Below, piece by piece: positions 30,317 to 52,591 of a DNA stretch of 64,000 nucleotides. The notes beneath the pieces were generated by a model. It saw only the letters and a program-made list of their open reading frames with translations. It did no database searches and was not told the DNA's origin. Every line of letters begins with the position of its first letter. Within the stretch, counting starts at the first letter, position 1. Origin of the DNA: Spirochaetaceae bacterium. GTDB lineage: Bacteria; Spirochaetota; Spirochaetia; DSM-2461. The position numbers and the translations under genes are program-made. Location of the stretch: positions 64,001 through 128,000 of the forward strand of contig JAOPTT010000010.1 in the NCBI GenBank assembly GCA_051531975.1. Direction: 5' to 3'.

Positions 30317-30472
30317 GTTATTCCCCTTAAGATAATAATACACTGAATACGTTAATTTACCTATTATTAAAACAAATGCAACAAACCTATGTTCAAATTC
30401 CATTTATATTTATCTATAAAAATTATGTTGCATATCATTCTTAACATTCCTACAATTAATATTGAGGGCACA

Positions 30473-32345: not shown

Positions 32346-32355
32346 TGAGGACTAT

Positions 32356-36497: not shown

Positions 36498-36720
36498 CTC
36501 TTATTGGAATACTAAATTTATTAGTTTATATCAAATAATTATAGATCTTTATAATAGATTGTCTAGTGTTAAGAATGATAATAAGCACTAATACCCCACT
36601 CATAGAGTCTGAATATTAATGTTTAGACAATATTATTAATAAATACATCCTAATATACAGAAATTGATATACTATAATGAATCTTACACATATAATAACA
36701 TGTAATTATTAGGAGATATC

Positions 36721-37422
36721 ATGGATTTCTTTAAGTGTGAACAAGAGATACTTAACAATGCAGAAGAATTCTTAACCCTTGAGAATAAACCGTCTGACGC
36801 ATATACAGATGAGTACCTAAAGTTATATCGTGGTTTTAAGAAGCTATTAAAAGAGTCAAAAAAACTTATCTCATTATCAGATATTACCCATAAACAGTTA
36901 AAAGATAGTGAGGAAAAGTTAACAGAATTATCTATAAGAGATCCATTAACAGGTTTACTAAATAGACGTGGAGTTTATCAGTGGCTTGATGATGAATTGG
37001 TTAGACTTAAACGAAACAATACAACTTTGGCTATTTTTATTATGGATATAGACTTTTTTAAAGATGTAAATGATACATATGGCCATACTGCCGGGGATTA
37101 TGCATTACAGCAACTAGCTAACCTATATCATGACTCTGTAAGAGAACAAGATTGTATTGGTCGTTGGGGTGGAGAAGAGTTTATATTAGTACTTCCTAAT
37201 ACCGATGCCACTGGAGCTTTTAATCTTGGTGAGAAACTTAGAAAAAGAGTGGAAGATTTTATAATCATATATGATAATAAACGTATAGAATTAAAGATAT
37301 CATTAGGTGGTTGTAGTTTAGATGAAAATACAACTCTAGATGACTGTCTAAAGTGTGCTGATAATGCACTTTATAAAAGTAAAGCGGAGGGAAGAAATAA
37401 GGTGACTATGCATGAATCTTGA
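36721..37422 (+). CDS. siaD: SiaD-like diguanylate cyclase
   Basis: Helical N-terminus (LLKESKKLISLSD); RDPLTGL, REQD and RWGGEEF; adjacent to siaB/C/A-like genes. Confidence 0.8.
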   Translation: MDFFKCEQEILNNAEEFLTLENKPSDAYTDEYLKLYRGFKKLLKESKKLISLSDITHKQLKDSEEKLTELSIRDPLTGLLNRRGVYQWLDDELVRLKRNNTTLAIFIMDIDFFKDVNDTYGHTAGDYALQQLANLYHDSVREQDCIGRWGGEEFILVLPNTDATGAFNLGEKLRKRVEDFIIIYDNKRIELKISLGGCSLDENTTLDDCLKCADNALYKSKAEGRNKVTMHES

Positions 37423-37960
37423 AAGTTTATCCAATATCTATCAACTATTAAATGAAGATGGAATAATAATTAGTTATCAGGGTGTTTTTCATCAAGAAAT
37501 TATTGAAGAGATTACTTCTATAATTAATCTTAAGCTTTCTTCTGATCCCGGAACAAAAAATAAGCATAAATATCTTACAATGTTTGTTGAATTATCCCAG
37601 AATATTTTAAGATACTCATCAGATTCTCTATTGAACAGTGAAGGGAAACAGATTAGTACAGGTATTATACTAGTTGGAACTAAAGATGATAAAATATTTG
37701 TTATTAGTGGGAATCCTATTAGTCCAGAATATAGAGATGATATTGATGAAAAGTTAAAAACACTAACAACCTTATCTGTAGAAGATCTGAATATGGTATA
37801 TAAACAGCAACTAAAAACAAAAGACCGACATAACTTTAATAAAAGTGCAGGTTTAGGATTGGTAGATATTATAAGAAAAGCGGATAAATCCGAATATAAT
37901 ATACATGACCAATCCCCTGGAAAACCTTTTTTAACAATAAAAGTAGAGTATAAGCTTTAA
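37412..37960 (+). CDS. siaB: SiaB family protein kinase (DUF6272)
   Basis: ISYQG; FVELSQNILRYS; SGN; SAGLGLVDIIRK. Confidence 0.85.
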   Translation: MNLESLSNIYQLLNEDGIIISYQGVFHQEIIEEITSIINLKLSSDPGTKNKHKYLTMFVELSQNILRYSSDSLLNSEGKQISTGIILVGTKDDKIFVISGNPISPEYRDDIDEKLKTLTTLSVEDLNMVYKQQLKTKDRHNFNKSAGLGLVDIIRKADKSEYNIHDQSPGKPFLTIKVEYKL

Positions 37961-37969
37961 TCTATAAAT

Positions 37970-38341
37970 TTAATCTATAACTTTAATATTATAGGGGAAT
38001 TGGAAATCTTCCAGTAGATCTTCCCCTGTCTCTTTTGCTACTTCGTTATCAGCATTATATAACCAGTTTACAGATACTTTTTTACCTTTTTTAAAAGCCT
38101 CTTCTAATATATCAAAAAGATAAAACATAGCTTTAGTACTACTAGTATTAAGATACAATAACCGGACATTCAGTTCAAAAATTATACCTTCCTTCTCTAA
38201 ATATTCCTCTACCCAGGTTATTACTGGTTCATAAAAATTACTTGAGTTTTCTGGATATGATTGTCCATCAATAGTAAACAGTCTGTTTTCTTCGTCAAAA
38301 AGTATTCGTGGTGTCGATTTTCCTACTGCTATATCTATCAT
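37970..38341 (-). CDS. siaC: SiaC family regulatory phosphoprotein (DUF1987)
   Basis: STP; GQSYPEN; FYEP; YLNTSSTK; VNWLY. Confidence 0.9.
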   Translation of the reverse strand: MIDIAVGKSTPRILFDEENRLFTIDGQSYPENSSNFYEPVITWVEEYLEKEGIIFELNVRLLYLNTSSTKAMFYLFDILEEAFKKGKKVSVNWLYNADNEVAKETGEDLLEDFQFPYNIKVID

Positions 38342-40374
38342 TTGTCTTCCTTCAATTTAAACCCCATAAGAGTAATATCATCTCTCTGACTATAGCCATC
38401 TTGAAAGTCTGCTAAATCTTTTTGGAGGGTATCTAAGTAACTATTCATGTTTTTACCAGTAGCTTTTTTAAGAGCTGCTAAATATCTTTTCCACCCAAAA
38501 CTAAACTCCTTTTCTCCACCACTTTGGTCTATATAACCATCAGTAGTAAAGTGAAAAGACATTCCCCTCTGGATATCTATTTGTTGTGTTGTATATACAT
38601 AATCATACTTTGATCTTTTATAACCAACACCTTGTTTGTCACCTTTATATTCAACTATGTCCCCATTTAAAAGGGTAAATAGTCTAATTTTTGATCCTGA
38701 GAATTGTAGAGATTTTGTATCACTATTATAGATACAAAGCCCAATATCAAGACCATCATCTTTTATTTCATATATATTATCCTGGGACAGTACTTGTTTA
38801 AGTAGTCTATTAAGATTAGATAATATAACACCTGGATCATCACTATTTATATGCTGTACAATTCTCTCTAACTGAGATTTTGCAGACATTGTTAATAGCG
38901 CCCCTGGTACACCATGACCAGTACAATCTATAACAGCGGCAATAAAACCATTATCTTTTTTCATTATCCAGTAAAAATCACCACCTACAACATCTTTTGG
39001 TTTCCAGTCAAGATAATGATCAAAAAATATCTCATCTAGTTGTGCCTTAGATGGTAAGATAGAGTTCTGAATCAAAGCAGCATACTCTATACTCTGCATT
39101 ACTTCCCTGTTCTTAACTTTTAACTCTTTAGTACGATCTTCAACTTTATGTTCCAAAGTTTCATTTAGTTCAAGGTTCACACTATAAGATTTTTCTAAAG
39201 AGGTATGAGTCTGGGCAAAACGTTTACCTAATATTACAGTAAAAGTTATAACCAAGAGGAAAAAACCTTCACCAATAAACGGTGATTTAGCTAATATACC
39301 CATGAAACATAACATACTGTATACAAAAGAAACTGACAGTAAAAGAATACCCACAAGCATAGTTTTTGAGTAAAAAAACTTAAGTTTAATAGCTCTAATT
39401 GAGACAAAAACGAGGTAAAATACTACTAAGATGTAGCTAAAGTTGAAACCATTATATAAATATTTACCAAAATTAAAAATTTGACCTGTAAAGAGATATT
39501 CAACTAAAATGAAAGAAGTCATGAACAAATATAATCCAATAAATATTTTTGCTCCAAGTTTTAGTTTTAGGTTATAAAACGAATGGATGAATAAAATAGG
39601 GAACATATACATATTTACTCCACCAACAAATGTTATAACCCAATATCCCCATGCTTTATCAATTAAATAATAGGCTAGACCATAATATCCAATGGTAAAT
39701 AATGCTACAGATAAACTGAAACCTGAGATGTATAGGTTGTATCGTTCTTGTTTTCTATATAAATACATTATAAAGAAATATAGAGCAAGGAAAAGACTAA
39801 CAAATGAGATAGCTGAATTTTTAATAACATATATTATCCAGTTTTGCTGTAATTCTTTATAATTACCTATCTTAACAAAACCACTAAAACCACCAACAGA
39901 ACTAAAACTACCAGCTTTAATTAATAGTGAATTTTCTCCAGTGTTTATAAGGCTATTACTAAGTTTTAAAGCTATAGGTTTGTGACCAAATTTATTATAT
40001 CCATTATATATTAAATTGTTATTAAGGTATAACTCATATCCTCCATAACTTAATGGAATGTATACCCCAAGTTCTTCATTTATTACATCAGGACTAAGGA
40101 TAAAAGAAATTTGATACCATGCATCCCCATAATGAGTTGCTAATTCTGGAATTGAATACTTCCATGGACTTGCTGTGGATATAGAAAACCAGTCATCATA
40201 GTTTATATTATCCATTTCATTATATTCTTTATCTTCTATTGAGAAGTTCCACTCAGTATTTAAACTGTAGACTTTATTATAGTCATCAACTAGTAGTGGT
40301 TTTACACTTTCTGCATATGTAGACAATGAGCATAAAGTTATTAGTAATATTATAACATGATTTCTGATTTTCAT
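38338..40374 (-). CDS. siaA: SiaA-like sensor phosphatase: extracellular jelly-roll domain, 7TM-DISM-like region and SpoIIE/PP2C domain
   Basis: Signal peptide; about 7 TM helices; SIEYAALIQ, PKDVVGGDFYW, DCTGHGVPGA, TDGYIDQSGG and QRDDIT motifs. Confidence 0.82.
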   Translation of the reverse strand: MKIRNHVIILLITLCSLSTYAESVKPLLVDDYNKVYSLNTEWNFSIEDKEYNEMDNINYDDWFSISTASPWKYSIPELATHYGDAWYQISFILSPDVINEELGVYIPLSYGGYELYLNNNLIYNGYNKFGHKPIALKLSNSLINTGENSLLIKAGSFSSVGGFSGFVKIGNYKELQQNWIIYVIKNSAISFVSLFLALYFFIMYLYRKQERYNLYISGFSLSVALFTIGYYGLAYYLIDKAWGYWVITFVGGVNMYMFPILFIHSFYNLKLKLGAKIFIGLYLFMTSFILVEYLFTGQIFNFGKYLYNGFNFSYILVVFYLVFVSIRAIKLKFFYSKTMLVGILLLSVSFVYSMLCFMGILAKSPFIGEGFFLLVITFTVILGKRFAQTHTSLEKSYSVNLELNETLEHKVEDRTKELKVKNREVMQSIEYAALIQNSILPSKAQLDEIFFDHYLDWKPKDVVGGDFYWIMKKDNGFIAAVIDCTGHGVPGALLTMSAKSQLERIVQHINSDDPGVILSNLNRLLKQVLSQDNIYEIKDDGLDIGLCIYNSDTKSLQFSGSKIRLFTLLNGDIVEYKGDKQGVGYKRSKYDYVYTTQQIDIQRGMSFHFTTDGYIDQSGGEKEFSFGWKRYLAALKKATGKNMNSYLDTLQKDLADFQDGYSQRDDITLMGFKLKEDK

Positions 40375-40390
40375 TGTAACTTCCTATTTT

Positions 40391-40597
40391 TTAGTAATAA
40401 AACCCTATTTTTGTAGTCTTCATATCTTCTTTGTTATCTACAAGTTTTTTACTATCATCTTCAGAGACATCATAACCTTTATCCTGAAACCAAGATGCAA
40501 CTGTTTTGTGGTCACTACTATCAACAACTTTGAGTAATTCTTCACCAATAGTGGTGTCTTTTGCAGCATCTGCAATAAAATCAATAAAATTTTTCAT
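40391..40597 (-). CDS. RiPP precursor A, Nif11-like leader, C-terminus KIGFYY
   Basis: 68 aa; FIxxAxKD...EL...W-F...GYDVSEDD pattern of Nif11-type leaders; paralog at 41235; flanked by maturases. Confidence 0.75.
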   Translation of the reverse strand: MKNFIDFIADAAKDTTIGEELLKVVDSSDHKTVASWFQDKGYDVSEDDSKKLVDNKEDMKTTKIGFYY

Positions 40598-40634
40598 TCA
40601 AATTCCTTCATTTTTGATTTAATACGGTTTTTTA

Positions 40635-40663
40635 ATTTTAAGAGATATTAGACTTACTGTCAA
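40635..40663 (-). promoter_or_regulatory. sigma70 promoter for precursor A-siaA-siaC
   Basis: TTGACA-17 nt-TAAAAT. Confidence 0.65.
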
Positions 40664-40682
40664 ACTTTTAATTGAATACTTA

Positions 40683-41207
40683 TTATTTGATATATATCCC
40701 ATACATTATGAAATCAACTGAAGAATTACCATAGGATATCCATGCAAAACCTTTTATCCCCCACAACCTACCCCATGAGTTTTTAATAAGCCATGCCTGC
40801 TTTTCATCATCATACCCAATTACTGTTACCGCATGACCACCAAATGATTTTCCAAATCTATGTCTGTATATACCTTTTCTATAAAATATTAGATCTAATC
40901 TGAAGTTCAGTATGGATAATAATGGACCTTTGCTATCAAGCCACTCTTTCATTTTTATCTGTTTATCCAGAGCTGTATAATCTGTTATTATTTTTTTATC
41001 CTTTAATAAAGTAAGAGTCTGATAGATATTATTTGCACTAGTAGGATATTTTTTAAGAAACTGTCTTTCCGATATTAGGCAGTATTTACCTGTTTTTTTA
41101 AATTTTAAAATCTCAAGGTTTGCTAAAACTGCATAGACTATACATACAGATCTGAAGCCTTGATTTTTTATTGGTAGATCTGGAAATTTATTATTAAGAA
41201 TAGGCAT
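40683..41207 (-). CDS. Minimal papain-like (C1A) cysteine peptidase without signal peptide
   Basis: NQGFRSVC (Cys at Q+6 as in papain), GGHAV and KNSWG motifs. Confidence 0.8.
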
Positions 41208-41234
41208 AGTAAACTCCCAGATTTATATTTTGGA

Positions 41235-41441
41235 TTAGTAATATAACCCTATTTTTTGTGATGCTATAGAGTCTTTATTCATCATGATCTTTTCACACTC
41301 ATCTTGGTTGATTGAATAACCCTGATTCTCAAACCATGTTGAAATCTCTGTGATGTTTGAACCCACAATCTTGTTGTTTAATTCTGTTGCCATACTCTCG
41401 TTTTTTGCTGCGTCTGCAACAAAATCAATAAAATTTTTCAT
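41235..41441 (-). CDS. RiPP precursor B, Nif11-like leader, C-terminus KIGLYY
   Basis: 68 aa; aligns without gaps to precursor A, 28/68 identical by manual count. Confidence 0.75.
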   Translation of the reverse strand: MKNFIDFVADAAKNESMATELNNKIVGSNITEISTWFENQGYSINQDECEKIMMNKDSIASQKIGLYY

Positions 41442-41470
41442 ATTTACTCCTTTGTTATTTTTCTTCTATG

Positions 41471-41499
41471 ATATTAGTGTTGTAACTCTTTACTGTCAA
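41471..41499 (-). promoter_or_regulatory. sigma70 promoter for precursor B and the peptidase
   Basis: TTGACA-17 nt-TAATAT; shares TTGACAGTAA with the promoter at 40663. Confidence 0.6.
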
Positions 41500-41516
41500 G
41501 GAATTTAAAATAGTTG

Positions 41517-41552
41517 ATAACCCTATAACCCTATAACCCTATAACCCTATAA
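41517..41552. repeat. Perfect 8-bp tandem repeat ATAA(CCCTATAA)x4
   Basis: Seen directly in the divergent intergenic region between precursor B and the radical SAM operon. Confidence 0.95.
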
Positions 41553-41606
41553 TTATACACATAAAAGTCTAAAATTAGTGTCTTAATAAAAAAAAATTCT
41601 TTTTCA

Positions 41607-41635
41607 TTGTCAAATATATTTTAATACTCTAACAT
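41607..41635 (+). promoter_or_regulatory. Putative promoter giving a leaderless radical SAM transcript
   Basis: TTGTCA-17 nt-TAACAT, 7 nt before ATG 41643; no SD. Confidence 0.5.
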
Positions 41636-41642
41636 TCTAACA

Positions 41643-42656
41643 ATGTTATCTATAGAAGTAACAACAAAATGTAATTTACGATGTATTAATTGTTTTGCCC
41701 ATGATTCCTCCCATGTATTTGAACATCTTGGACTTAAGAAAGCAGAAGAGATAGCTCTTGAGGGTCGAGTTTTAGGTTATAAATCTATCAGTCTTACAGG
41801 TGGTGAGACCTTTTTGTGGCCTTATATACTCGGTTTTTTAACTTACCTTAAAAGTATTGGATATGAAACAATATTGATAAATAGTAACTTACACCTATTA
41901 ACTGAAGAGTTATGTAACAAACTGTCTAAATTTACTGATCTGTTGACCATTAGTTGTAGTATTAATGGATTTAAAGATGAACACGAAATTGTTAGAGGGA
42001 TTGGAAGTTACGATAAAGTAATTACAGGATTAAAAAATGCTATAACGTACGGTTTAAAAATGATTGTATATACAGTCGTTAATAGAAGAAACTTATATGA
42101 TATTCCTAAATTTACTGAGTGGTTATTTAAACAGTTCCCAGAAATTATAGATCTAGTTTTTATACAGTTAAGAGGAATAGACGACGGTTACTACCAGGTA
42201 GAAGACCTTAAACTAGAACCAAAAGATTTAATTGAGTTTGTTAAAATGATCAGCTATTTAAGTCTTGGTGGATATAATGTAAGCATATTAGAGAACTCAT
42301 TATCTACTGTTGTTGCAGAGATGCTTGGTTTTAAGTGGTATCCTAAGAGTCCAGAGATATCTAGAGATGGCAAAATAGTTGTAATGCAAACTGGGGTTAT
42401 TACAGATAATCACTCCAGTTTAGAAATATTAGGGAACTATAACAATCAATCCCTTAAAGATGTATTAGAATCAAAAGAATATAGAGAATTATGTGTAGAC
42501 GAGTCTAAATTATGTATAGGTTGTAAATTTATTTCAATATGTAGAAAGTCCGGTAAAGTGAGACCATCAGATATGTATCATAATACTGGAGACAGTGATT
42601 ATTACTACTGTCAAAAAGTATTAAGTCAGATAACCCAAGGAGTTATAAATGAATGA
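41643..42656 (+). CDS. Radical SAM enzyme with partial SPASM domain (peptide maturase-like)
   Basis: EVTTKCNLRCINC (CX3CX2C); LTGGE; SINGFKDEHEIVRGIGSY; C-terminal CIGCKFISIC...YYC. Confidence 0.85.
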   Translation: MLSIEVTTKCNLRCINCFAHDSSHVFEHLGLKKAEEIALEGRVLGYKSISLTGGETFLWPYILGFLTYLKSIGYETILINSNLHLLTEELCNKLSKFTDLLTISCSINGFKDEHEIVRGIGSYDKVITGLKNAITYGLKMIVYTVVNRRNLYDIPKFTEWLFKQFPEIIDLVFIQLRGIDDGYYQVEDLKLEPKDLIEFVKMISYLSLGGYNVSILENSLSTVVAEMLGFKWYPKSPEISRDGKIVVMQTGVITDNHSSLEILGNYNNQSLKDVLESKEYRELCVDESKLCIGCKFISICRKSGKVRPSDMYHNTGDSDYYYCQKVLSQITQGVINE

Positions 42657-44397
42657 TTTATTGTTAATTGTACCACCCTTTTTTTCCCCTGAATTACAGT
42701 CATTAGGACTACACAATTTACAGGCATGCGCTAGAAAAGAGGGATTCAGTACAGATATAAAATATGTTAACTTTGAATTAGCTAGACGTTTAGGAGATAA
42801 CTTTAAAAACTTCTGTGTTATGAACTATTTCCAATTAGGAGAGAGGATTTTTGCAAAAGCCGCTTGGGGGGATCTAGTTGGTGAGCAATTTTATGACGGA
42901 TTATATGATTTTTCTGACATATTTGACTGGGATAGGAATCCTGTTAAATTCTTTGATGAACAGAATCAATTAACAATAGCAGAGCTAAAAAAGTGTGAAA
43001 AAATAGCTACGTCCTGGCTTTTAGACCTTGAAGAACAATTTAAAGATCTACCTTACAAATATGTTGGTATTTCTAGCTCCTATGAACAGATAAATGCTGG
43101 CATAGCTTTATTTAAAATAATTAAACGGTTAAACCCAGAAATTATAACCTTTATTGGGGGATTTAACTGTGAAGAAGAGATGGCTAAAGGCATAGCATCT
43201 TTAGATAGTGATAGACAGTATATAGATTACATCTTCAGTGGAGAGAGCGAGATAAGCCTAATCAACTTTTTAAAAGATGGTGGATCAAAAAATAGAATTA
43301 TTCGAAGTGAACTTTTACAAGATATGAATATAATCCCGGATCTAGACTACTCAGACTATTTTAACCAGCTAAATTTTAAGACAGAGCATAAATTATTGGT
43401 TATGGAGCATAGCCGTGGCTGCTGGTGGGGAGAAAAAACCCAATGCAAATTCTGTGGAGTTGGACGTCTACAATTTAGAAAAAAGAATTTTGATCGGATT
43501 AAAACAGAGTTAGAAAATGCTAAAAAGTGGGGTATTAAGAGATTGCATATGGCAGATTTAGCTATGCCTGATTCACATTTAACAGACCTTCTTCCCCACC
43601 TCATAGATGAGGATTATGGCTGGGAGATATATTTTGAACAGAAGGTATCCCTTAACTATGAGCAGTTAAAACTCTTAAAGAAATCTGGAGTAAATGAAAT
43701 TCAACCTGGAATCGAAACCCTTAGCGACAATGTATTAAAAAAGATGTCTAAGGGTACTTCAATGAGACAAAATTTAACATTTCTACGTGATGGAACATCT
43801 CTGGGGTTAGAAGTCTTATGGAATATAGTGTGGGGAATTCCTGGAGAGACAATAGAAGATTATAGAGAGATGAATAAATTAATACCTCTACTAGTCCATC
43901 TTATGCCACCTGTAGGGATATTCCATATGACGTTGGTACGTTTTAGTCCATATTTTAATAATCCGAAACAGTATGGGATAACAAATATTAAACCTATAAA
44001 ATCATATTACGATGTATATCCAGATTTTGTAGATATAGACAATTTGGCTATGATATTTAAGTGTGAACATAACGAAGAAAACCTAAATGATAAAACAGAG
44101 TTAATAAAATTTTTAGAACTATTGGAGAGTTGGAACTCAAGGTGGGAGAATAACCTATTTACTCCAAAACTTGAGATAACTAAACTAGGTGATGGCACTG
44201 TAATACTGCTTGATACTCGGGGAATAGAGGGTTGTGAAGTTAAGAGAGAACTAAGTCCAGTAGAAATAGAATTATTATTATATCCTGCTATTTATACTAA
44301 TAGCGATATGGAGAATATGTTTATAGAAAACAAAGTAGCCATACTAGATGATGGATTTTTTATACCACTTGTTATAATTACAGAGGAGATGAGATAA
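42649..44397 (+). CDS. B12-dependent radical SAM RiPP C-methyltransferase (TIGR03975-like)
   Basis: N-terminal B12-binding fold (PPF...SLGL; FIGGFNCE; FSGESE); SRGCWWGEKTQCKFCG (CX7CX2C); IQPGIE; WNIVWGIPGE; LVHLMPP; RFSPYF. Confidence 0.85.
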   Translation: MNDLLLIVPPFFSPELQSLGLHNLQACARKEGFSTDIKYVNFELARRLGDNFKNFCVMNYFQLGERIFAKAAWGDLVGEQFYDGLYDFSDIFDWDRNPVKFFDEQNQLTIAELKKCEKIATSWLLDLEEQFKDLPYKYVGISSSYEQINAGIALFKIIKRLNPEIITFIGGFNCEEEMAKGIASLDSDRQYIDYIFSGESEISLINFLKDGGSKNRIIRSELLQDMNIIPDLDYSDYFNQLNFKTEHKLLVMEHSRGCWWGEKTQCKFCGVGRLQFRKKNFDRIKTELENAKKWGIKRLHMADLAMPDSHLTDLLPHLIDEDYGWEIYFEQKVSLNYEQLKLLKKSGVNEIQPGIETLSDNVLKKMSKGTSMRQNLTFLRDGTSLGLEVLWNIVWGIPGETIEDYREMNKLIPLLVHLMPPVGIFHMTLVRFSPYFNNPKQYGITNIKPIKSYYDVYPDFVDIDNLAMIFKCEHNEENLNDKTELIKFLELLESWNSRWENNLFTPKLEITKLGDGTVILLDTRGIEGCEVKRELSPVEIELLLYPAIYTNSDMENMFIENKVAILDDGFFIPLVIITEEMR

Positions 44398-45056
44398 TGG
44401 AAAAAGTTGTAAATGATAAAAAAATATGGGATGAGATATACGAAAAAGAGAACTTTACACCTGGATGGGGAAGCCCAGGTTTGGATAATAATATAGTTAC
44501 CTATGTAAAAGCTTATATAAATGAGTACAAACTTAAATCATTGTCCATATTAGATATTGGTTGTGGTAATGGTAGAAATTCCTTTGTAAAAGAGGAGCTG
44601 GAGAAAGATGGAGTTATTGTAGATTATACAGGTGCTGATTTTTCAGAGAAAGCTCTGACATACTGTAGGGAAACTTATACAGATAAAGAGTTTATACATC
44701 TTGATATTACTGATAATAACCTTCCTTTAAAAGAGAGTTATGATGTTATTATTGACTGTGGTTGTTTCCACGCTATTCCACCTGAAGTTCGTATTAAATA
44801 CATAGATAATGTAAAAAAACATTGCTCAGATAGTAGTTTATTAATTATTGGTGCATGGTACCGGGAAGAGAAACATACAGAAGTAGATAAACCTTCATAC
44901 TTTCCCTACCTCTATTTAGACGAATGGTTTCTTAATAGAAGTGATATGACCCAGATATTTAATAATAAGTTTAATGTTATATCTGAGCTTGTTGATAACA
45001 GGATATATGAAGGTTTAAACAAAGGCTTCGCATATTTTAGATTAAGACTTTGTTAA
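44397..45056 (+). CDS. Class I SAM-dependent methyltransferase
   Basis: ILDIGCGNGRN; GADFS; YDVIIDCGCFH. Confidence 0.88.
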   Translation: MEKVVNDKKIWDEIYEKENFTPGWGSPGLDNNIVTYVKAYINEYKLKSLSILDIGCGNGRNSFVKEELEKDGVIVDYTGADFSEKALTYCRETYTDKEFIHLDITDNNLPLKESYDVIIDCGCFHAIPPEVRIKYIDNVKKHCSDSSLLIIGAWYREEKHTEVDKPSYFPYLYLDEWFLNRSDMTQIFNNKFNVISELVDNRIYEGLNKGFAYFRLRLC

Positions 45057-45947
45057 TGGTGGTATAACTCCGGTTATACCCCACATCTCAGAATCTACAC
45101 CACACTCTCCATACTTAATCCAGAAGTAACCACTCTCTCCCCAGCTTTCACCCCAGGAGTTTTTACATAACCAAGCCTCTTTATCATCTGAATAACCAAC
45201 TATAGTTATGCAGTGACCTCCAAGTTCTGGTCCTAATATAGGGCTATAGATTCCTTCTCCATAAAAAAGAAAGTCCGCTCTTAAACTCATAGCACCGATA
45301 AGTGGGCCATTAGTAAATATCCAGCTTTTCATTTCCTCTTCAGTAGTTAGTGTTTTATAACCTTTTATTTTTGTAACCCTATTCTGCCATCCCGTCGACA
45401 GAGCTTTATCCTTATCGTCAGTATCGTAGGGAAACTCTTTTTCAGTTACAACTCCAGTATTAACTAGATAGTTTAGAGCATCTTCCACAGGCCAACCTGT
45501 TTTACAGTTATGGGTACTCGGTGTATCTTCTGGAGAAAACCCAGGGCTCTTAAAAAACAACTGACCTTCAGAGAGATTTATATCCACATTATGTTCAATT
45601 TTTGCCATACTCTCTGTAACTGCTAATGAACCAAAGGCTGCACAGGAACTGCAAAACCCCTGGTTTTTAACAGTTGCCATATAATTTTTACCCTTTTTAT
45701 TTAACCAGTTAAAACTTTTAGGGTAGTCTACTGTAATTATTTTAGTATCCTTCAGATGTTTAATATGGTTTTCCCTAGAAATTTCTACCCTTTCATCTAA
45801 TGATAACGTACTTTCTGTGGTTCTAAATCCAGCTAAACTCTTTAACTCTTCAAAAAGTATACCTGTAAAAAGGTTTAATGAAGGTGTCCACTGGGGTTTC
45901 TCTAACTTTGATAATTCTTTAAAAAATAACTCGTCTAATATACTCAT
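45042..45947 (-). CDS. Papain-like (C1A) cysteine peptidase, cytoplasmic, with N-terminal pro-like region
   Basis: YPKSFNW; VKNQGFCSSCAAF; LSEGQL; GGHCITIVGY; KNSWGESWGESGY. Confidence 0.9.
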   Translation of the reverse strand: MSILDELFFKELSKLEKPQWTPSLNLFTGILFEELKSLAGFRTTESTLSLDERVEISRENHIKHLKDTKIITVDYPKSFNWLNKKGKNYMATVKNQGFCSSCAAFGSLAVTESMAKIEHNVDINLSEGQLFFKSPGFSPEDTPSTHNCKTGWPVEDALNYLVNTGVVTEKEFPYDTDDKDKALSTGWQNRVTKIKGYKTLTTEEEMKSWIFTNGPLIGAMSLRADFLFYGEGIYSPILGPELGGHCITIVGYSDDKEAWLCKNSWGESWGESGYFWIKYGECGVDSEMWGITGVIPPLTKS

Positions 45948-46028
45948 GCTGGGATTATACTACGGTTATTAATAATCTAGGTATAATTTTATGGGTAATC
46001 GATTTATGTTTGTATTATAATATTAATT

Positions 46029-46868
46029 ATGAAGAAATATATAATAATATTGTCACTATTAATTACACTTTTTTCATGTTCCAAATTTAGTAAACAACTG
46101 TATCAAGAACATGAAATGGTATTGGTTGAACCTGGTTCCTTTATTATGGGCTCAGATTCTGGGAAAGAGAACGAAAAGCCAGCCCACAAAGTTAAAATAA
46201 CAAGAGCATATTATATAGGTGTTTATGAAGTCACCTTTAATCAGTACGATGCTTATACACTGGAAACTAAAAGGAAATCTGCAGACCCAACTATTAAAGA
46301 TAGAGGGCAAAGACCTGTAATGAGTGTGGACTGGATACAAGCTGTAACCTACTGTAACTGGTTAAGTAAAAAAGAGGGATTCACCCCTTGTTATATAGTA
46401 AAAGGTGTAAAAACAACATGTAATTTTGAAGCCGATGGTTATAGATTACCAACTGAAGCAGAGTGGGAATTTGCAGCCTCTGGGGGGAATAAAAGCAAAG
46501 GATTTATATATTCCGGAAGCAATAATGTTGATGAAGTAGGATGGTATGAAAAAAACTCAAATAACGATTTTTATAATATAGGACTTAAGAAACCTAACGA
46601 ATTAGGACTGTACGATATGTCAGGGAACATGTGGGAATGGTGTTGGGATTATTGGGATAAAGATTATTATAAATATTCACCATCCATAGATCCAACAGGG
46701 CCATTAACAATACCGAAACAGGACATGGCATATAATGTGGAAAAATCCAGGCGTAGCTCCAGATGGTTAAATACAGAATTTTATCTGAGAGTTTTTAACC
46801 GTTCAGCAGACTTCATAAATTATGAGGGAGATAATGGAATACGTCTTGTAAGAAGTAAAGTTAATTAA
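46029..46868 (+). CDS. FGE-sulfatase (SUMF1/EgtB/PvdO) domain lipoprotein, probably non-catalytic
   Basis: LFSC lipobox; FIMGS; YEVT; YRLPTEAEWEFAA; PNELGLYDMSGNMWEWC. Confidence 0.88.
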   Translation: MKKYIIILSLLITLFSCSKFSKQLYQEHEMVLVEPGSFIMGSDSGKENEKPAHKVKITRAYYIGVYEVTFNQYDAYTLETKRKSADPTIKDRGQRPVMSVDWIQAVTYCNWLSKKEGFTPCYIVKGVKTTCNFEADGYRLPTEAEWEFAASGGNKSKGFIYSGSNNVDEVGWYEKNSNNDFYNIGLKKPNELGLYDMSGNMWEWCWDYWDKDYYKYSPSIDPTGPLTIPKQDMAYNVEKSRRSSRWLNTEFYLRVFNRSADFINYEGDNGIRLVRSKVN

Positions 46869-46983
46869 CAATTTATATAATATCCTTTATAGATATAATT
46901 AGATTAATGAAATACAATTCATCTTGGATATCTCACTTAAGATGCTCCGGTTTTGCCTAGTAATTAATATTAACGGAGAAATA

Positions 46984-48174
46984 ATGAAAAATAGAAATTT
47001 ATGGTTCTTAATAGCTACACAATGCTTTTTTATGAGTGCTAATATGATGTTTACAACACTTGCACCAATGTTAGGAAAATCGCTACTAATAAATGTTAGT
47101 TATGCTACCCTGCCCATGGCTATGAGTATGTTATCAATGCTTATTTTCTCTTTCCCCGTAAGTATATGGATGGGGAAAAAAGGACGGGGACCAGCTTTTA
47201 AAACAGGCTTACTATCTAATATGTTAGCCGCAGTTATATTTTTTATAGCACTCCAGTCTAATCAATTTTATCTATTATTAATAGGTTCTGTTTTTTTTGG
47301 ATTCTCAATATCCACTGCAAATTTCTATAGATTTGCAGCTATGGAACTAGTACCTGAAAAAGATCAATCTAAAGCTATATCCATGGTTATGTCTGTTGGA
47401 ATAGTTGCTGCTTTAGTCGGCCCCAATTTAGGTTCTGTTACTAAAAATCTAATTTTTGATATTGATTTCTCCGCATCAGTACTTACTTTTATTCCACTAT
47501 CATTAATGAGTCTAATAATGGTTTCAAATGTAAAATGGCCGGCAATAAAAGAATTAAAAAAAGAAAACGATGATATAACCACCTTAATTGCTCCCCTTGA
47601 TATATGGAAATCTGGAACTTGGAAGCCAATTTTTGGGGCCATGGTATCATTTGGAATAATGGTTTTAATTATGAGTGCTACACCCCTACATATGTCAGCT
47701 TCTAAATATGCATTTTCTGATACTGCTTGGGTAATTCAATGGCATGTATTAGGTATGTTTGCCCCATCTTTTTTCCTTGGTTGGATAATAAAGAAGATAG
47801 GTTTAAATAGACTGCTTATATTAGGAGTAATATTTTTAATCCTCTCTATAGCTGTTAATTTAATTTCTGATAGTAGAGCCCTTTTAACTATTGGATTATT
47901 ATTCTTAGGCATAGGTTGGAACTTCCTATTTCTTGGTTCTAGTAAGTGGTTAATGAATTGTATAATACACTTAAATGTAAAGGAAAGATCTAGAGTTCAA
48001 GGTATAAACGAAGTATTAGTATACGGCTTATCATCTGCTGCAACTCTTAGTTCCGGCTGGATAATAAATAAACTAGGGTGGCAAGTACTAAATATAGTTG
48101 CACTTCCTATTTTAATACTATTATTAGGTGTATTAATTCTAAATACTTTGAAAACCAAAAAGTTAATCTTATAA
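46984..48174 (+). CDS. MFS transporter
   Basis: About 12 TM helices; FYRFAAMELV; VIQWHVLGMFAPSFF; GIGWNFLF; start ATG 46984 after GGAG. Confidence 0.88.
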   Translation: MKNRNLWFLIATQCFFMSANMMFTTLAPMLGKSLLINVSYATLPMAMSMLSMLIFSFPVSIWMGKKGRGPAFKTGLLSNMLAAVIFFIALQSNQFYLLLIGSVFFGFSISTANFYRFAAMELVPEKDQSKAISMVMSVGIVAALVGPNLGSVTKNLIFDIDFSASVLTFIPLSLMSLIMVSNVKWPAIKELKKENDDITTLIAPLDIWKSGTWKPIFGAMVSFGIMVLIMSATPLHMSASKYAFSDTAWVIQWHVLGMFAPSFFLGWIIKKIGLNRLLILGVIFLILSIAVNLISDSRALLTIGLLFLGIGWNFLFLGSSKWLMNCIIHLNVKERSRVQGINEVLVYGLSSAATLSSGWIINKLGWQVLNIVALPILILLLGVLILNTLKTKKLIL

Positions 48175-48250
48175 AATTATTCCCATATAAATTAGCAACT
48201 TTAAGTAAAATGATTGTTTTCCCTATAGATTGAACCTAAACTTTTTATAT

Positions 48251-48580
48251 ATGGACAGTGAAATAGATGAAATTCTGGAAGTTGAAAGAAAAGCAAAATC
48301 AATAATAGATGATGCAAGAGCGAAATCCCTCAAAATCAGGTCTAAAGACGATATAGAGATTAGTAACAGAACAAAAAGTATTAAAGATGAAATTAATAGT
48401 TATCTGAAAACAGAATCAAAAAATGCAAAAATAGAAAGTTCCAAGGAACATCAATTAAAAATAGAAGAGGTTGAATCCACTATTCTATTTGATACAGTAC
48501 CTAAAAAAATAAAAGATAAATTAATAAATGATATAATATCTATAATTCTTGATACCACATTTAAGATGGTGGAGAGATGA
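48251..48580 (+). CDS. V/A-type ATPase peripheral stalk subunit G/H-like
   Basis: Charged coiled coil (ILEVERKAKSIIDDA); first gene of the operon. Confidence 0.6.
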   Translation: MDSEIDEILEVERKAKSIIDDARAKSLKIRSKDDIEISNRTKSIKDEINSYLKTESKNAKIESSKEHQLKIEEVESTILFDTVPKKIKDKLINDIISIILDTTFKMVER

Positions 48581-49608
48581 TAAATAGTAAATTTATTAAT
48601 TCAAAACTAAAAGCAAAAATGAGCCTTATGTTAACAAAGGAATTTTTTAATATATTAAGCCGTTCCAACTCCTTAGAAGAAGGTATCCAGATGTTAAGGG
48701 GAACAGACTTTGACATCTTAACCAGGAATTATATGCTTACAGGTGATCTTAAAATGGGAGAACTGGAACTCTTTAAAAAACAGATAAAGTTTTATACAGA
48801 ACTTGAACCATTTTACCCTACAAGTTTTAAACCTCTAGTACATGCACTACTTCTAAAATATGAGATTGATGTCTTAAAATCTGTATTCAGATTGTGGTTT
48901 GATAAAAATATTAGAAAACGTGATATAGGTGGACGATTAGGTTATATATATAGAAACAGTATAATAAATAAAATACCAATAGATGAAATCTTAAACTGTT
49001 CTAGTTTAGAGAAGATAGCGCAACTTTTTGAAGATTCACCATACTATTCTCTAGTTGTTTTAGAATCTGGGAACATATTAAAATATCAATCCCTATTTTT
49101 ATTTGAAACCAGTCTGGATATTTTATACTTCAGAGAAATATTTTCAGCTATAAATAGATTAAAAAGAGAGAACAAAAAAATTGCTTTAACATATTATAAC
49201 TATGTAGTTGATGTAGAAAATATAAAATGGGCAAATAGGTTTAGAGAGTTTGATGTTTATAAAGATATAGATTTTGGTGCAATATACATCCCCTATGGGT
49301 TAATAAACAAACAGTTATATAAAAGACTTTTAAAATCTGAAGATTCTGAGTTCCTAGAACAGTTAAAAAAAAGATATAAGAAGATTAATATAAACAGAGA
49401 TGAACAGTTCCCAGTAGATAAGACAATTTACGAAATGGAACTATCTATCCAGCTTAAAATACAAAAGTTATTACATGGAGATCCATTTTCAATAGGAACC
49501 TTAATAGCATATTTTTATAAAAAACAGCTGGAAATTAGTAAAATAATTACTGTATTAAATGCAATATCCTATGAATTATCTGAAAAAAGAATAAGGGAGT
49601 TAATATGA
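48577..49608 (+). CDS. ntpC: V/A-type ATPase subunit C (d)
   Basis: FINSKLKAK; YEIDVLK; DVENIKW; PFSIGTLIAY. Confidence 0.8.
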   Translation: MINSKFINSKLKAKMSLMLTKEFFNILSRSNSLEEGIQMLRGTDFDILTRNYMLTGDLKMGELELFKKQIKFYTELEPFYPTSFKPLVHALLLKYEIDVLKSVFRLWFDKNIRKRDIGGRLGYIYRNSIINKIPIDEILNCSSLEKIAQLFEDSPYYSLVVLESGNILKYQSLFLFETSLDILYFREIFSAINRLKRENKKIALTYYNYVVDVENIKWANRFREFDVYKDIDFGAIYIPYGLINKQLYKRLLKSEDSEFLEQLKKRYKKININRDEQFPVDKTIYEMELSIQLKIQKLLHGDPFSIGTLIAYFYKKQLEISKIITVLNAISYELSEKRIRELI

Positions 49609-51290
49609 TATTCCCCTTAAAAATGAGAAAAATTACAGCTATATTATTAAAAGAATATGGTGATGATATGGCAAAATCCCTTTTGGATATTGGTGTTATA
49701 GATTTTATTAACCCAGAAAATATGGAAACAAAGGATAATCTAAAATCTCTAGAATTATTAAAAGATCGAATAGATATATTTCTAAATATGATTCCTGGAA
49801 ACAAAGACAGCAAAAACTTAAGTATGGAAGATCTAACTATAATAGATTCTCCAATGGTTATTAAGTTTCTAGATACTCTAAATGATAAATTAAAACATAT
49901 TAGAAAAGAGCAAAAACAGATACAGGAAAAGATTTTATCCCTAGAAGAGATAGAGAGACAAACCAAACTAATACCTGGGGATATACCCTCTGATGCCTCA
50001 TCAGATATTGAAGAGTTAAGACAGAATCAGTTAATATTAAATGACAAAACATTAGAAACTGTAGAATCACATAAAGATGAATTATTAAAAATATCAAGGG
50101 AACTAAAGACTAATATTATATATATTCAGATTCAAACTAGTTTTGTACAAACCGATAGTACATTTATCTTTTCTGGGTGGATACCTGAGATTAATATAAA
50201 AAAACTTGAAAATAGATTAAACGACATTACATCTAATAACTACTATTTAAAATTATCAGACGAGATAGAGGACATACCTGTTGAACTCTCCTCCCCAGGT
50301 ATACTTAATCCATTTAAAAAAATAGTGGAGAACTACTCGCTTCCAGATTATGGAACCATAGATCCTACAATATTTACAGCCTTCACCTACATGATAATGT
50401 TTGGATTAATGTTTGCAGATGCAGGACATGGTTTTGTTATATTAACAATAGGTTTATTAGGAATAAAATTTATTAAAGGTAAATATAATCATATATATCA
50501 GTTAATGATCTGGTGTGGATTTTCAGCAATAATATTTGGAATACTTTTTGGATCATATTTTGGTATGAAATGGTTTAATCCTATCTGGTTTGATTACCAC
50601 GGAATTATCTCGGGAGAGTCCCATGGTGATTCAGAAATAAACACTATTTTTGGTGTACTTGGAGTAACCGTCTATTTTGGCATATTTGTTATATATCTTG
50701 GTCTTGTAATGAACTGGGTAAATCTATTTATTCAAAAGAGATGGATCAGACTGTTTTTTGCTAAAGAGGGAATCCTTGGTGGCTGGATATATGGAGCAGG
50801 AATATATACAGCACGTTTTTTTATAATAAATGATTACAAATCCCTACCAGATCCGGTTTTACTGTTTTTTATTATTATGTTACCTACACTTCTGCTATTT
50901 GTGAAAGCACCTCTTGAATCTAGAGATGAAAAGTTTTCAGCTAGCCTAATTACAGATTTTATAATGGACGGGATTGTACAAGTCCTTGAAATGTTTACAG
51001 GCTACCTCTCAAACACCCTATCTTTTATGAGGATTGCAGGCCTTGGAATAGCACATATAAGTCTCATGATCGCATTTTTTCAGATTGCCCAGTCAGTAAA
51101 CAATACCTTTATATCAATAATCATCCTTATATTAGGAAATGCCTTAGTAATAACACTGGAAGGACTATCAGCTGGAATACAGTCATTAAGGTTAAATTAT
51201 TATGAATTTTACTCAAAATATTTTAATGGGAAAGGTCGGGGTTTTAATCCGCTATCCCTAGGTTATATAAAAAAGAAGGAGTCAATATGA
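49605..51290 (+). CDS. ntpI: V/A-type ATPase subunit I (a)
   Basis: GWIP; IDPT; FGLMFADAGHG; NTLSFMRI; IQSLRLNYYEFY. Confidence 0.92.
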   Translation: MIFPLKMRKITAILLKEYGDDMAKSLLDIGVIDFINPENMETKDNLKSLELLKDRIDIFLNMIPGNKDSKNLSMEDLTIIDSPMVIKFLDTLNDKLKHIRKEQKQIQEKILSLEEIERQTKLIPGDIPSDASSDIEELRQNQLILNDKTLETVESHKDELLKISRELKTNIIYIQIQTSFVQTDSTFIFSGWIPEINIKKLENRLNDITSNNYYLKLSDEIEDIPVELSSPGILNPFKKIVENYSLPDYGTIDPTIFTAFTYMIMFGLMFADAGHGFVILTIGLLGIKFIKGKYNHIYQLMIWCGFSAIIFGILFGSYFGMKWFNPIWFDYHGIISGESHGDSEINTIFGVLGVTVYFGIFVIYLGLVMNWVNLFIQKRWIRLFFAKEGILGGWIYGAGIYTARFFIINDYKSLPDPVLLFFIIMLPTLLLFVKAPLESRDEKFSASLITDFIMDGIVQVLEMFTGYLSNTLSFMRIAGLGIAHISLMIAFFQIAQSVNNTFISIIILILGNALVITLEGLSAGIQSLRLNYYEFYSKYFNGKGRGFNPLSLGYIKKKESI

Positions 51291-51655
51291 ATATAAAATC
51301 ATTTAAGAAGAGAGTTAGTATTAGCTTTTTTATTACAGCAGGATTTATGATAGTTTTTTCATTTTTAACACCAACTCCAGTTTCAGCAGAAACCAGTGAA
51401 AAGAGTGTTGTAGTAGCTAATGAACAAGTGGAAAATGTTATGGCAAAAAAATGGGCATTTATATCAGCAGCTATTGCTTTTGGTTTAGGTGCTATTGGTG
51501 CAGCTATTGCAATATCCAACGTTGGAGCTGCAGCTATGGGTGCCATGAGTGAAAAGCCTGAAATAGGTTCCCAGGCACTTATTTTTATAGCATTAGCCGA
51601 AGGTCTGGTTGTATTTGGATTTATTACCGCTTTAATGATACTGAGCAGGATTTAA
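51287..51655 (+). CDS. ntpK: V/A-type ATPase proteolipid subunit K (c)
   Basis: GAAAMGAMSEKPE; IALAEGLVVFG. Confidence 0.92.
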   Translation: MNIKSFKKRVSISFFITAGFMIVFSFLTPTPVSAETSEKSVVVANEQVENVMAKKWAFISAAIAFGLGAIGAAIAISNVGAAAMGAMSEKPEIGSQALIFIALAEGLVVFGFITALMILSRI

Positions 51656-51656
51656 C

Positions 51657-51962
51657 ATGAAATATTTTGTTATTGGAGATGATGATACAGTACTTGGTTT
51701 CTCTTTAGTTGGTGTTGAAGGTATAACAGCAAAAACATCTGCCGAAGTAAAAGATGCATTTAACAGAGCTTTAAGTAATAGTAATTATGGAATAATCATT
51801 ATTACAGATAGGTGTGCTGAATTAATAAGAGAAGAGGTAAATAACTTTCTTTTTACACAAACATTTCCATTAATATTAGAAATTCAAGATAAAAACGGTC
51901 CTATTACTGGTAAACCTAGTCTAAAAGAGATTGTAGACCAGGCTATTGGAATTAAACTATGA
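51657..51962 (+). CDS. ntpF: V/A-type ATPase subunit F
   Basis: VIGDDDTVLGFSLVGV; IVDQAIGI. Confidence 0.92.
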   Translation: MKYFVIGDDDTVLGFSLVGVEGITAKTSAEVKDAFNRALSNSNYGIIIITDRCAELIREEVNNFLFTQTFPLILEIQDKNGPITGKPSLKEIVDQAIGIKL

Positions 51963-52591
51963 CAAAAGAAGAACTATCTGCAGGTATAATTGAAAAAGCT
52001 CGTATAGAAGCAGATGAAATTATATTAACTGCTGAAAAATCCTCTGGGATTAAAATAGAGAACAATGAAAAGAGATTAAACCGGCAGTTTAACGATGCAA
52101 AATTAAAAGCAGAGAAAGTTAAAAAAATCACATATTCTAAACAAGAAAAACTGACATCAATGTATATTAACCGTTACAAACTTAAGGATAGAGAAGATTT
52201 TATTGATAAAATAACTAAGGTCGTTATTGATAAAATAAATGACAAAATTCGATCCCCTGAATATATAATGCATCTGGAAAATCTAATTTTAGAGGGAGCT
52301 CTTGGACTTAATAGATCTAAAATGTATCTAAATAGTTCTAAAGAGGAGTTAAATCTTTTGTCATCTGAATCACTTAAAAATATAGGTAATAAAGCTTCTG
52401 GGATTCTTGGAGTAGATGTAGAAATATTACTTTCAAAAGATAAACCTCTGTCTACTAAAGGAATTATATTAATAAGTGAAGATGGCAGAGTCTCATACAA
52501 TAATCTTATAAAAAGTAGAATTAAGCGTAAACAGGAAATTATAAATGAGCTAATAGCAAGATCATTGGATATGGTGAACAACCATGAATGA
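51959..52591 (+). CDS. ntpE: V/A-type ATPase subunit E
   Basis: N-terminal coiled coil; GIILISEDGRVSYNN. Confidence 0.85.
   Translation: MTKEELSAGIIEKARIEADEIILTAEKSSGIKIENNEKRLNRQFNDAKLKAEKVKKITYSKQEKLTSMYINRYKLKDREDFIDKITKVVIDKINDKIRSPEYIMHLENLILEGALGLNRSKMYLNSSKEELNLLSSESLKNIGNKASGILGVDVEILLSKDKPLSTKGIILISEDGRVSYNNLIKSRIKRKQEIINELIARSLDMVNNHE

Follow-up and report, generated by a model that had tools for sequence, protein, structure and literature searches.

We analysed a 64,000-nt window of a contig from a marine spirochaete (Spirochaetaceae; genome G000) and, within it, positions 40391..48174, which an earlier note had described as a candidate new class of peptide made by the ribosome and modified after translation (RiPP). 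All nine genes of this segment are present in the window's list of open reading frames (ORFs) where that note had placed them: two small precursor genes, here termed preA and preB, together with genes for two radical S-adenosylmethionine (SAM) enzymes, a methyltransferase, two papain-family peptidases, a lipoprotein and a transporter. The note overlooked a neighbour: the arrangement of the genes predicts that the precursors are co-transcribed with a 7TMR-DISM receptor that is part of a SiaABCD module. The genes and sites of this region are as follows.

36721-37422, plus strand: SiaD-like diguanylate cyclase (GGDEF, 146.5 bits; NF038266, 190.9 bits, cut-off 290).
37412-37960, plus strand: SiaB-family kinase (NF038262, 135.2 bits, cut-off 85; DUF6272).
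37970-38341, minus strand: SiaC-like phosphoprotein (Pfam SiaC, 133.2 bits, cut-off 24.5).
38338-40374, minus strand: SiaA-like receptor phosphatase, 678 aa (7TMR-DISM_7TM, 38.1 bits, passing the cut-off of 29; SpoIIE, 65 bits).
40391-40597, minus strand: preA, precursor of 68 aa ending in KIGFYY (ORF list).
40635-40663, minus strand: promoter-like site before preA, TTGACA-17-TAAAAT, 11/12 (consensus match only).
40683-41207, minus strand: short papain-family (C1) peptidase, 174 aa, between the two precursors (Peptidase_C1, 65.8 bits).
41235-41441, minus strand: preB, precursor of 68 aa ending in KIGLYY (ORF list; match to the family profile A2, 5e-24).
41471-41499, minus strand: promoter-like site before preB, TTGACA-17-TAATAT, 10/12 (consensus match only).
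41643-42656, plus strand: radical SAM enzyme with a twitch/SPASM-like C-terminal domain (Radical_SAM, 64.7 bits).
42649-44397, plus strand: B12-dependent radical SAM C-methyltransferase, PoyB/C-like (TIGR03975; Cx7Cx2C).
44397-45056, plus strand: class I SAM methyltransferase (Methyltransf_25 and related families).
45042-45947, minus strand: long C1A peptidase, 301 aa (Peptidase_C1, 144.6 bits, residues 76-288).
46029-46868, plus strand: FGE-sulfatase-like lipoprotein, of doubtful membership (FGE-sulfatase Pfam model, 151.1 bits).
46924-48174, plus strand: MFS transporter, of doubtful membership, a possible exporter (MFS_1, 77.6 bits).

The preB, short C1 peptidase, preA, siaA and siaC genes are all co-directional, and the siaA start codon lies 16 nt past the end of the preA ORF on the same strand. 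The three enzyme genes of the plus strand overlap one another (42649/42656 and 44397). Each precursor may be transcribed from its own promoter-like site, although the regional total of such sites is no higher than in shuffled sequences. A perfect 8-bp tandem repeat (ATAACCCT, 4.5 copies; 41517-41552) is placed between the divergent operons for precursors and enzymes, immediately upstream of the promoter-like site of preB. It is unique within the G000 genome and absent from the loci of all relatives, and may serve as a regulator site or as a switch of variable length. An Rfam scan of positions 36000-49000 gave no match. One small metatranscriptome run from the same sample yielded 0 contigs on the stretch, all of which is covered by the DNA run, and is uninformative on expression.

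The two precursors are indeed paralogs conserved mostly at both ends: they align end to end without gaps (28/68 residues identical; E 4e-23), and identity is densest at residues 1-13 and 62-68. A conserved YY at the C-terminus, also proposed in the earlier note, was rejected, because it is found in just 3 of the 14 close precursors. The motif common to all 14 is [ILV]-G-x(1-3)-[Y/W], in which nothing is fixed but Gly65 and the terminal aromatic residue (the tails are KIGFYY, KIGLYY, KIGFFY, NLGLLY, NVGYY, KLGLVY, NLGLYPY, EVGLGY, SLGYAY, RVGIAW, KLGVMY, RIGYIY, SLGLFY and KLGYFY). An invariant Gly located four residues from the C-terminus, together with the terminal Tyr, fits the idea that almost the whole precursor is a leader and the core is tiny and aromatic.

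The description of the precursors as Nif11-like holds in a weaker form. All matches are below the curated cut-offs: PF07862 (Nif11) reaches 19.5 bits on preA (E 0.0012, cut-off 23.8) and does not match preB at E<=0.01, and TIGR03798 reaches 15.5 bits against a cut-off of 32.3. However, these weak matches are consistent across the family (at E<=1, PF07862 in 7/8 members and TIGR03798 in 6/8), and therefore a distant relationship to Nif11 leaders is likely. A lookup in the ESM Atlas, which we treat as a lead only, returned only Nif11-domain clusters (0.77-0.80). In the available part of a review, a double-Gly leader end and a C39 peptidase-containing ATP-binding cassette (ABC) transporter (PCAT) as exporter are given as features of Nif11-leader precursors; no GG, GA or GS pair precedes the core in any of the 14 close precursors, and no C39 PCAT or ABC exporter was found among the window ORFs. 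Release 20 of NCBIfam has no specific model for the precursors or for the twitch-like radical SAM enzyme, a word-index protein search with preA returned only itself and one 81%-identical protein, and protein-cluster entries carried no useful names ('hypothetical protein' or blank).

The siaA product consists of an extracellular beta-sandwich, a 7TMR-DISM membrane domain, a long helix and a PP2C domain. The AlphaFold2 model (predicted local distance difference test, pLDDT, 82.5) has the same parts, with the outer beta-sandwich at residues 27-171 and seven membrane helices. Among solved folds, the PP2C domain is best matched by P. aeruginosa SiaA (6k4e; E 4.5e-17, TMt 0.86, 32% identity). The SiaA equivalog model NF038263 matches the PP2C part only and at 241.8 bits stays below its cut-off of 700; the best NCBIfam match of the GGDEF protein is the SiaD model NF038266, also below its equivalog cut-off. 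The SiaC and SiaB family models both score above their cut-offs in the window.

Two further loci in G000 resemble parts of this module. A second SiaC paralogue, 57% identical to that of the window, lies on contig C12 (61524-61892), with no SiaA, SiaB or SiaD homologue and no precursor within 10 kb as judged by BLAST. The window also has, a few kb upstream (30389-34343), a second partner-switch-like set, in which a GGDEF protein and a protein with a methyltransferase domain accompany a SpoIIE/PP2C protein of 477 aa and one of the DUF6272 (SiaB-like) family.

Homologous clusters are found in nine further close loci from relatives and metagenomes (L007-L011, L020, L025, L026 and L028; L027 duplicates L028), and thus the genes cluster more than expected by chance. 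Homologues of the first radical SAM enzyme are present in 6 of 41 related genomes, G000 counted, and the precursor in 7 of 38 genomes of the family. SiaC was detected in six of these 38, all of them precursor-positive; the exception without SiaC is G008, a 74% complete genome whose contig starts at the precursor. The six loci with enough flanking sequence (the window, L007, L010, L011, L020 and L028) all have the precursor, SiaA, SiaB, SiaC, SiaD, both radical SAM enzymes and the methyltransferase, and five of the six have a C1 peptidase. Across the nine close loci, the first radical SAM enzyme was counted in seven, the B12 radical SAM enzyme in eight, the methyltransferase in six and a C1 peptidase in five. 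The link between precursor and receptor survives three rearrangements of gene order; L010 and L011 have the SiaABCD genes between the precursor and the C1-methyltransferase-B12-radical SAM genes, and the order in L020 and L028 is different again. L026 repeats the window order precursor-C1-precursor-receptor, and L028 has both twin precursors and twin B12 enzymes.

L020 belongs to a record labelled as a Clostridia metagenome-assembled genome (G452) and carries a complete window-type cluster, yet only 2 of 301 sampled genomes of that phylum have a family member, namely G452 itself and one with a weak match inside a 745-aa ORF. This points to a mis-binned contig or gene transfer.

The FGE-like and MFS genes, which had been counted as cluster members, are present in the window, but neither has a homologue in any of the nine close loci, and both were ruled out as core members. 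The MFS gene is unique to the window's genome, with no BLAST homologue in the relatives' loci. Directly downstream of it, a V-type ATPase operon occupies 48230-56371. At some distance on the other side, 24667-28035 encodes a 1123-aa protein that combines WD40 beta-propellers with a caspase domain (Peptidase_C14) at its C-terminus.

A profile of eight precursors, searched against 1.84 billion representative proteins, gave 194 matches at E<=1e-3. Among the 150 matches listed, 145 are short (<130 aa); of these short ones, 137 end in Tyr and 2 in Trp, against a background Tyr frequency of 3.6%; only 27 of the 145 short proteins have an [ILVM]-G-x(1-3)-[YW] tail. Five long proteins (P0010, P0059, P0091, P0121 and P0122; 494-4091 aa) have 2-9 separate matches to the middle of the profile, which may reflect a repeated Nif11-like module or a composition effect. 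With a 141-sequence profile, a family member was identified in 61 of 401 genomes sampled across the spirochaete phylum.

We then compared 40 distant spirochaete loci, 20 from the top of the match list and 20 from lower down, picked by score and contig size and not by context; the enzyme counts refer to flanks of 6-10 kb. In 34 of the 40, the gene immediately downstream of a precursor, in the same orientation, encodes a sensor-type receptor (gap -40 to 573 nt), and such a receptor is present anywhere in the locus in 38. The two receptor-less loci (L072 and L102) end within about 500 nt of the precursor. With 10 or more 7TMR-DISM genes among several thousand, adjacency by chance would be far below that observed. 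The enzymes are less constant: a polyprenyl-synthase-like protein (family A3) was found in 27 of the 40 loci, a homologue of the first radical SAM enzyme in 21 and an FGE-like protein, which recurs here as well as in the window, in 8; TIGR03975-type B12 enzyme, methyltransferase, C1 peptidase, SiaB and SiaC homologues were found in none. The precursor family therefore tracks the receptor type more closely than it tracks any enzyme. A terminal Tyr is present in 42 of the 50 precursors from these distant loci.

Some of the distant loci deviate from this pattern. L072, L076 and L077 have twin precursors, one ending in FLFLT[R/Q] and the other in PVMWAY (TMIGGY in L072), together with a chemoreceptor (methyl-accepting chemotaxis protein, MCP), a KAS III-like enzyme and a WYL regulator; L092 and L100 show only a PVMWAY-type precursor within the sequence covered. 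A PAS-HisKA_3 7TMR-DISM kinase is present in L076, L077, L092 and L100.

What the linked receptors share is their sensory part. Residues 1-400 of the window's SiaA match all of them (E 3e-19 to 1e-109, the match usually starting at about residue 10-40), whereas the 10 other 7TMR-DISM proteins of G000 match at best at 3e-8 and mostly in the membrane part; by these comparisons, the linked sensors appear as a specific clade. Their outputs differ: PP2C alone, HisKA-HATPase-REC-PP2C, HisKA-HATPase, PAS-HisKA_3-HATPase or REC-His_kinase. Only the outer domain and the membrane domain are common to all.

Taken together, a functional coupling between the peptide cluster and the receptor is likely, as far as gene neighbourhoods can tell. 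The precursor genes travel with one special type of receptor, and a cell-to-cell signal is therefore the probable role of the peptide, which would then be more than a new natural product. The opposite possibility, a stand-alone RiPP such as an antimicrobial, with the SiaABCD/7TMR-DISM genes as a neighbouring regulator or a producer-side sensor, appears improbable. On the one hand, the enzymes are of typical RiPP tailoring types, a toolkit like that of polytheonamide is known from a cytotoxic peptide (as given in the available part of a review), and an MFS transporter is nearby. On the other hand, the sensor is a more faithful partner (38/40) than either the polyprenyl-synthase-like protein (27/40) or the radical SAM enzyme (21/40), the outputs of the receptors change while the sensor part is kept, and no immunity gene or dedicated exporter is conserved. 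The proposal of a candidate new RiPP class was partly right, in its Nif11-like precursors, its B12 enzyme and the plausibility of a tiny core, and incomplete, since it missed the receptor; the signal-receptor reading is both stronger and more novel.

Among the tailoring enzymes, the assignment of the second as a TIGR03975-type B12 radical SAM enzyme is well supported (430.3 bits against a cut-off of 281.85), and 7 of 7 orthologues from the close loci pass as well (436-465 bits). Its Cx7Cx2C motif, read from the translation, is CWWGEKTQCKFC. The first radical SAM enzyme had been called SPASM-type, which is not supported: the Pfam SPASM model (PF13186) gives 17.1 bits, below its cut-off of 21.5. 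SPASM domains hold two auxiliary clusters with seven Cys. Across 21 aligned homologues, the invariant Cys residues are 10, 14 and 17 (CX3CX2C) together with C291, C294, C300 and C323; because no more than these four are invariant in the C-terminal part, which would suffice for a single auxiliary cluster, the enzyme fits a twitch-like type. Sequence searches against solved structures, which matched only CysS for the B12 enzyme (4e-5) and only the viperin-like core for the first enzyme, are uninformative on chemistry. The methyltransferase was correctly recognised (Methyltransf_25); its solved sequence relatives include, weakly, the plantazolicin N-methyltransferase BpumL (about 1e-6).

Papain-type peptidases carry their catalytic Gln, Cys, His and Asn in the motifs NQG..C, GGH and NSWG. 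Both C1 peptidases keep all of these while being only 32% identical to each other, in agreement with their original description as papain-like. The long one carries a conserved extension of 75 aa at its N-terminus and lacks an obvious signal peptide. The combination of enzymes had been thought unfamiliar; however, a Cx7Cx2C B12 radical SAM enzyme, a C1A protease and a SAM methyltransferase make up the polytheonamide/proteusin toolkit as described in the available part of a review. Among the papers listed by our literature search on TIGR03975, none is on its function.

A terminal Tyr next to a radical SAM enzyme with an auxiliary-cluster domain also recalls MftA and MftC, and one may ask whether the C-terminal Tyr gives rise to a redox cofactor of the mycofactocin or PQQ kind. 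The mycofactocin maturase model TIGR03962 does match the enzyme, but at 46 bits, far below 265, and over the radical SAM core only. The loci showed neither an MftB- or PqqD-like partner nor dependent dehydrogenases, and their constant neighbour is the receptor. A redox cofactor is therefore a very remote prospect.

The family that most often accompanies the distant precursors, A3, is unannotated, about 280-380 aa long and without a Pfam match at 1e-4. It has two invariant Asp-rich motifs, LHSxDxHxxD and WRxxDDxxDxxxD. The A3 profile weakly matches hepta- and hexaprenyl diphosphate synthases (E 0.012 and 0.041), and polyprenyl_synt matches were detected in 4 of 13 members. The A3 model is all-helical (pLDDT 88.6) and has 45 solved-structure matches at E<=1e-3; among those listed, all are polyprenyl, geranylgeranyl diphosphate or farnesyl diphosphate synthases, with TM scores up to 0.69. 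A3 is thus predicted to have the trans-polyprenyl-synthase fold. It usually adjoins the radical SAM gene (L063-L070, L074, L075, L079, L080 and others), and FAD enzymes resembling geranylgeranyl reductase or lycopene cyclase recur nearby, the two being fused in L102. This arrangement hints that the peptide signals of the wider family are for the most part prenylated.

A profile search of the whole G000 genome found no A3 homologue. The [ILV]-G tail is likewise a property of one side only, present in 14/14 close precursors and 0/50 distant ones, and it co-occurs with the enzyme set: the B12 enzyme, methyltransferase and C1 peptidase are found in 8, 6 and 5 of the nine close loci and in 0/40 distant loci. 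Since A3 is present in distant loci and absent from G000, and the B12, methyltransferase and C1 genes are present only in close loci, it appears that in the clade of the window a methyl-type set has taken the place of an isoprenoid-type one (B12 radical SAM enzyme, class I methyltransferase and C1A protease). One close locus, L009 (G008), carries both A3 and a TIGR03975 enzyme.

We propose the following circuit for the window. The enzymes would recognise the precursor by a handle formed by its Nif11-like part, from residue 1 to around 55. The B12 radical SAM enzyme would add C-methyl groups to the extreme C-terminus, and the twitch-like enzyme would act on the tail by cross-linking, epimerisation or decarboxylation. 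Papain-type S2 pockets favour a hydrophobic P2 residue; the cytoplasmic C1A protease would cut after the invariant Gly65, with a hydrophobic residue at P2, and release an aromatic product of 2-4 residues, for example FYY or LYY, whose new N-terminus the methyltransferase may methylate after leader removal. This small hydrophobic product would then reach the beta-sandwich and 7TMR-DISM sensor of the SiaA-like receptor. Its PP2C domain would act on SiaC, opposed by the SiaB kinase, and SiaC would control SiaD and thereby set the level of cyclic di-GMP (c-di-GMP). Gene content, family assignments and the conserved linkage are observed; the cleavage site, the residue modified by each enzyme, export, sensor binding and the direction of the effect on c-di-GMP are inferred. 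That the processed peptide is the ligand of the receptor, in a ComQXP-like circuit that feeds c-di-GMP synthesis, is somewhat more likely than not.

Several steps have precedents in the available part of a review: PoyB and PoyC methylate aliphatic side chains, and PoyC has the Cx7Cx2C motif; the C1A proteases PoyH and ThoK remove RiPP leaders, PoyH cutting after GG; a three-residue core is known from crocagin; and both crocagin and plantazolicin are N-methylated once the leader has been removed.

The precursor may instead remain uncleaved, as a 68-aa intracellular partner of the receptor whose tail the enzymes modify as a protein modification. Its whole length is well conserved (mean column identity 65% over eight sequences), it has no signal peptide, GG site or conserved exporter, and the C1 peptidase is not universal. 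Yet the only parts common to the receptors, the outer and membrane domains, would be hard to reach from the cytoplasm, the cluster has two C1 peptidase genes, one of them between the twin precursors, and the likeness to Nif11 leaders is consistent. We think such a role unlikely.

Some of the same observations count against a secreted, processed ligand and have to be weighed with others. The precursors lack a signal peptide and a GG motif, no exporter is conserved in the relatives' loci, and no homologue of the long C1 peptidase was found in G001, a 96% complete genome. In the locus of G014, a DUF559 ORF takes the place of the radical SAM gene and the precursor ends in Trp. No single enzyme explains the invariant Tyr, because a radical SAM gene lies within the flanks in only 21 of the 40 distant loci. 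A single genus supplies four loci (L085-L088) whose precursor-like ORFs lack a terminal Tyr and whose receptor is one gene away. The outer beta-sandwich of the receptor model aligns to sugar-binding domains of GH2 enzymes (E about 2e-7), and a carbohydrate ligand would fit such a domain as well. Finally, the related genomes are not independent samples, and the whole case is built on genomes, that is, on gene neighbourhood and homology. As a separate observation, the precursor-like ORFs of L085-L088 have A3 beside them, along with a receptor of the 7TMR-DISM-PP2C type and an FGE-sulfatase protein.

Receptors of the 7TMR-DISM type are common sensors in bacteria, and to our knowledge no defined ligand is known for most of them. 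In its broadest form, our proposal is that peptide signals with an invariant C-terminal Tyr occur throughout the spirochaete phylum, each the cognate ligand of a member of a dedicated 7TMR-DISM clade, while tailoring sets (prenyl- and methyl-type) and outputs (kinase, PP2C and c-di-GMP) are interchangeable; on the sequence comparisons above, we would hold this to be evenly balanced between true and false. If true, it would assign the first class of ligands to 7TMR-DISM sensors, describe the first peptide quorum-sensing system in spirochaetes and provide a defined input signal for a SiaABCD pathway. It would also extend ComX-like modified-peptide signalling to a diderm phylum. A sensor clade paired gene by gene with precursors offers a concrete candidate ligand that can be synthesised, with c-di-GMP as a read-out, and a polytheonamide-type enzyme set acting on a minimal core would be of interest for RiPP enzymology. 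Our literature searches found no paper linking 7TMR-DISM to radical SAM enzymes or peptide maturation, and those on RiPPs, quorum sensing, spirochaetes, Nif11 and SpoIIE did not find the association of precursor and receptor.

The system shares features with four known ones. With mycofactocin it has in common a small precursor with a C-terminal Tyr (MftA ends in VY) and a radical SAM enzyme with an auxiliary-cluster domain; it differs in its score with the MftC equivalog (46 against 265 bits), in having four, not seven, C-terminal Cys, in that no MftB, MftD, MftE or MftF was seen, and in its constant neighbour, the receptor. The likeness to polytheonamide and other proteusins, for which we rely on the available part of a review, lies in the Cx7Cx2C TIGR03975 B12 radical SAM enzyme, the C1A proteases and the putative cut after Gly. 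In contrast, the leader here is Nif11-like and not nitrile-hydratase-like, the core would have 2-4 residues and not 49, there is no LanM-like dehydratase or hydroxylase, and the cluster is coupled to a receptor.

The P. aeruginosa SiaABCD system is matched by SiaC and SiaB above their cut-offs, by the PP2C domain (6k4e, TMt 0.86) and by SiaD as the best NCBIfam match, whereas the SiaA and SiaD equivalog scores fall short (241.8/700 and 190.9/290 bits). A switch in which PP2C, SiaB and SiaC set the activity of SiaD is the role annotated for the Pseudomonas system in the source text available. What differs here is the sensor, which combines 7TMR-DISM with an outer beta-sandwich, and the peptide precursor predicted to be co-transcribed with it.

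A parallel in design is ComQXPA, the quorum-sensing system of Bacillus, which relies on an isoprenyl transferase (ComQ), a pre-peptide (ComX) and a membrane kinase (ComP) (PMC4008528, in the part available). Both systems join a small precursor whose aromatic C-terminal end becomes, or here would become, the signal, a tailoring enzyme and an adjacent polytopic membrane sensor; the A3 protein with its polyprenyl-synthase fold in 27/40 distant loci adds to the likeness, as does the use of HisKA_3 by some linked receptors, as in ComP (PMC4008528, same part). A 2014 census, as far as the same part of that source goes, placed ComQXPA-like loci only in Firmicutes. The spirochaete system belongs to another phylum and has a Nif11-like, Tyr-ended precursor and a 7TMR-DISM sensor with a beta-sandwich; G000 has a B12 radical SAM enzyme, a methyltransferase and C1 peptidases instead of a ComQ-like gene, and its output would run through a PP2C partner switch to c-di-GMP, not through ComA.

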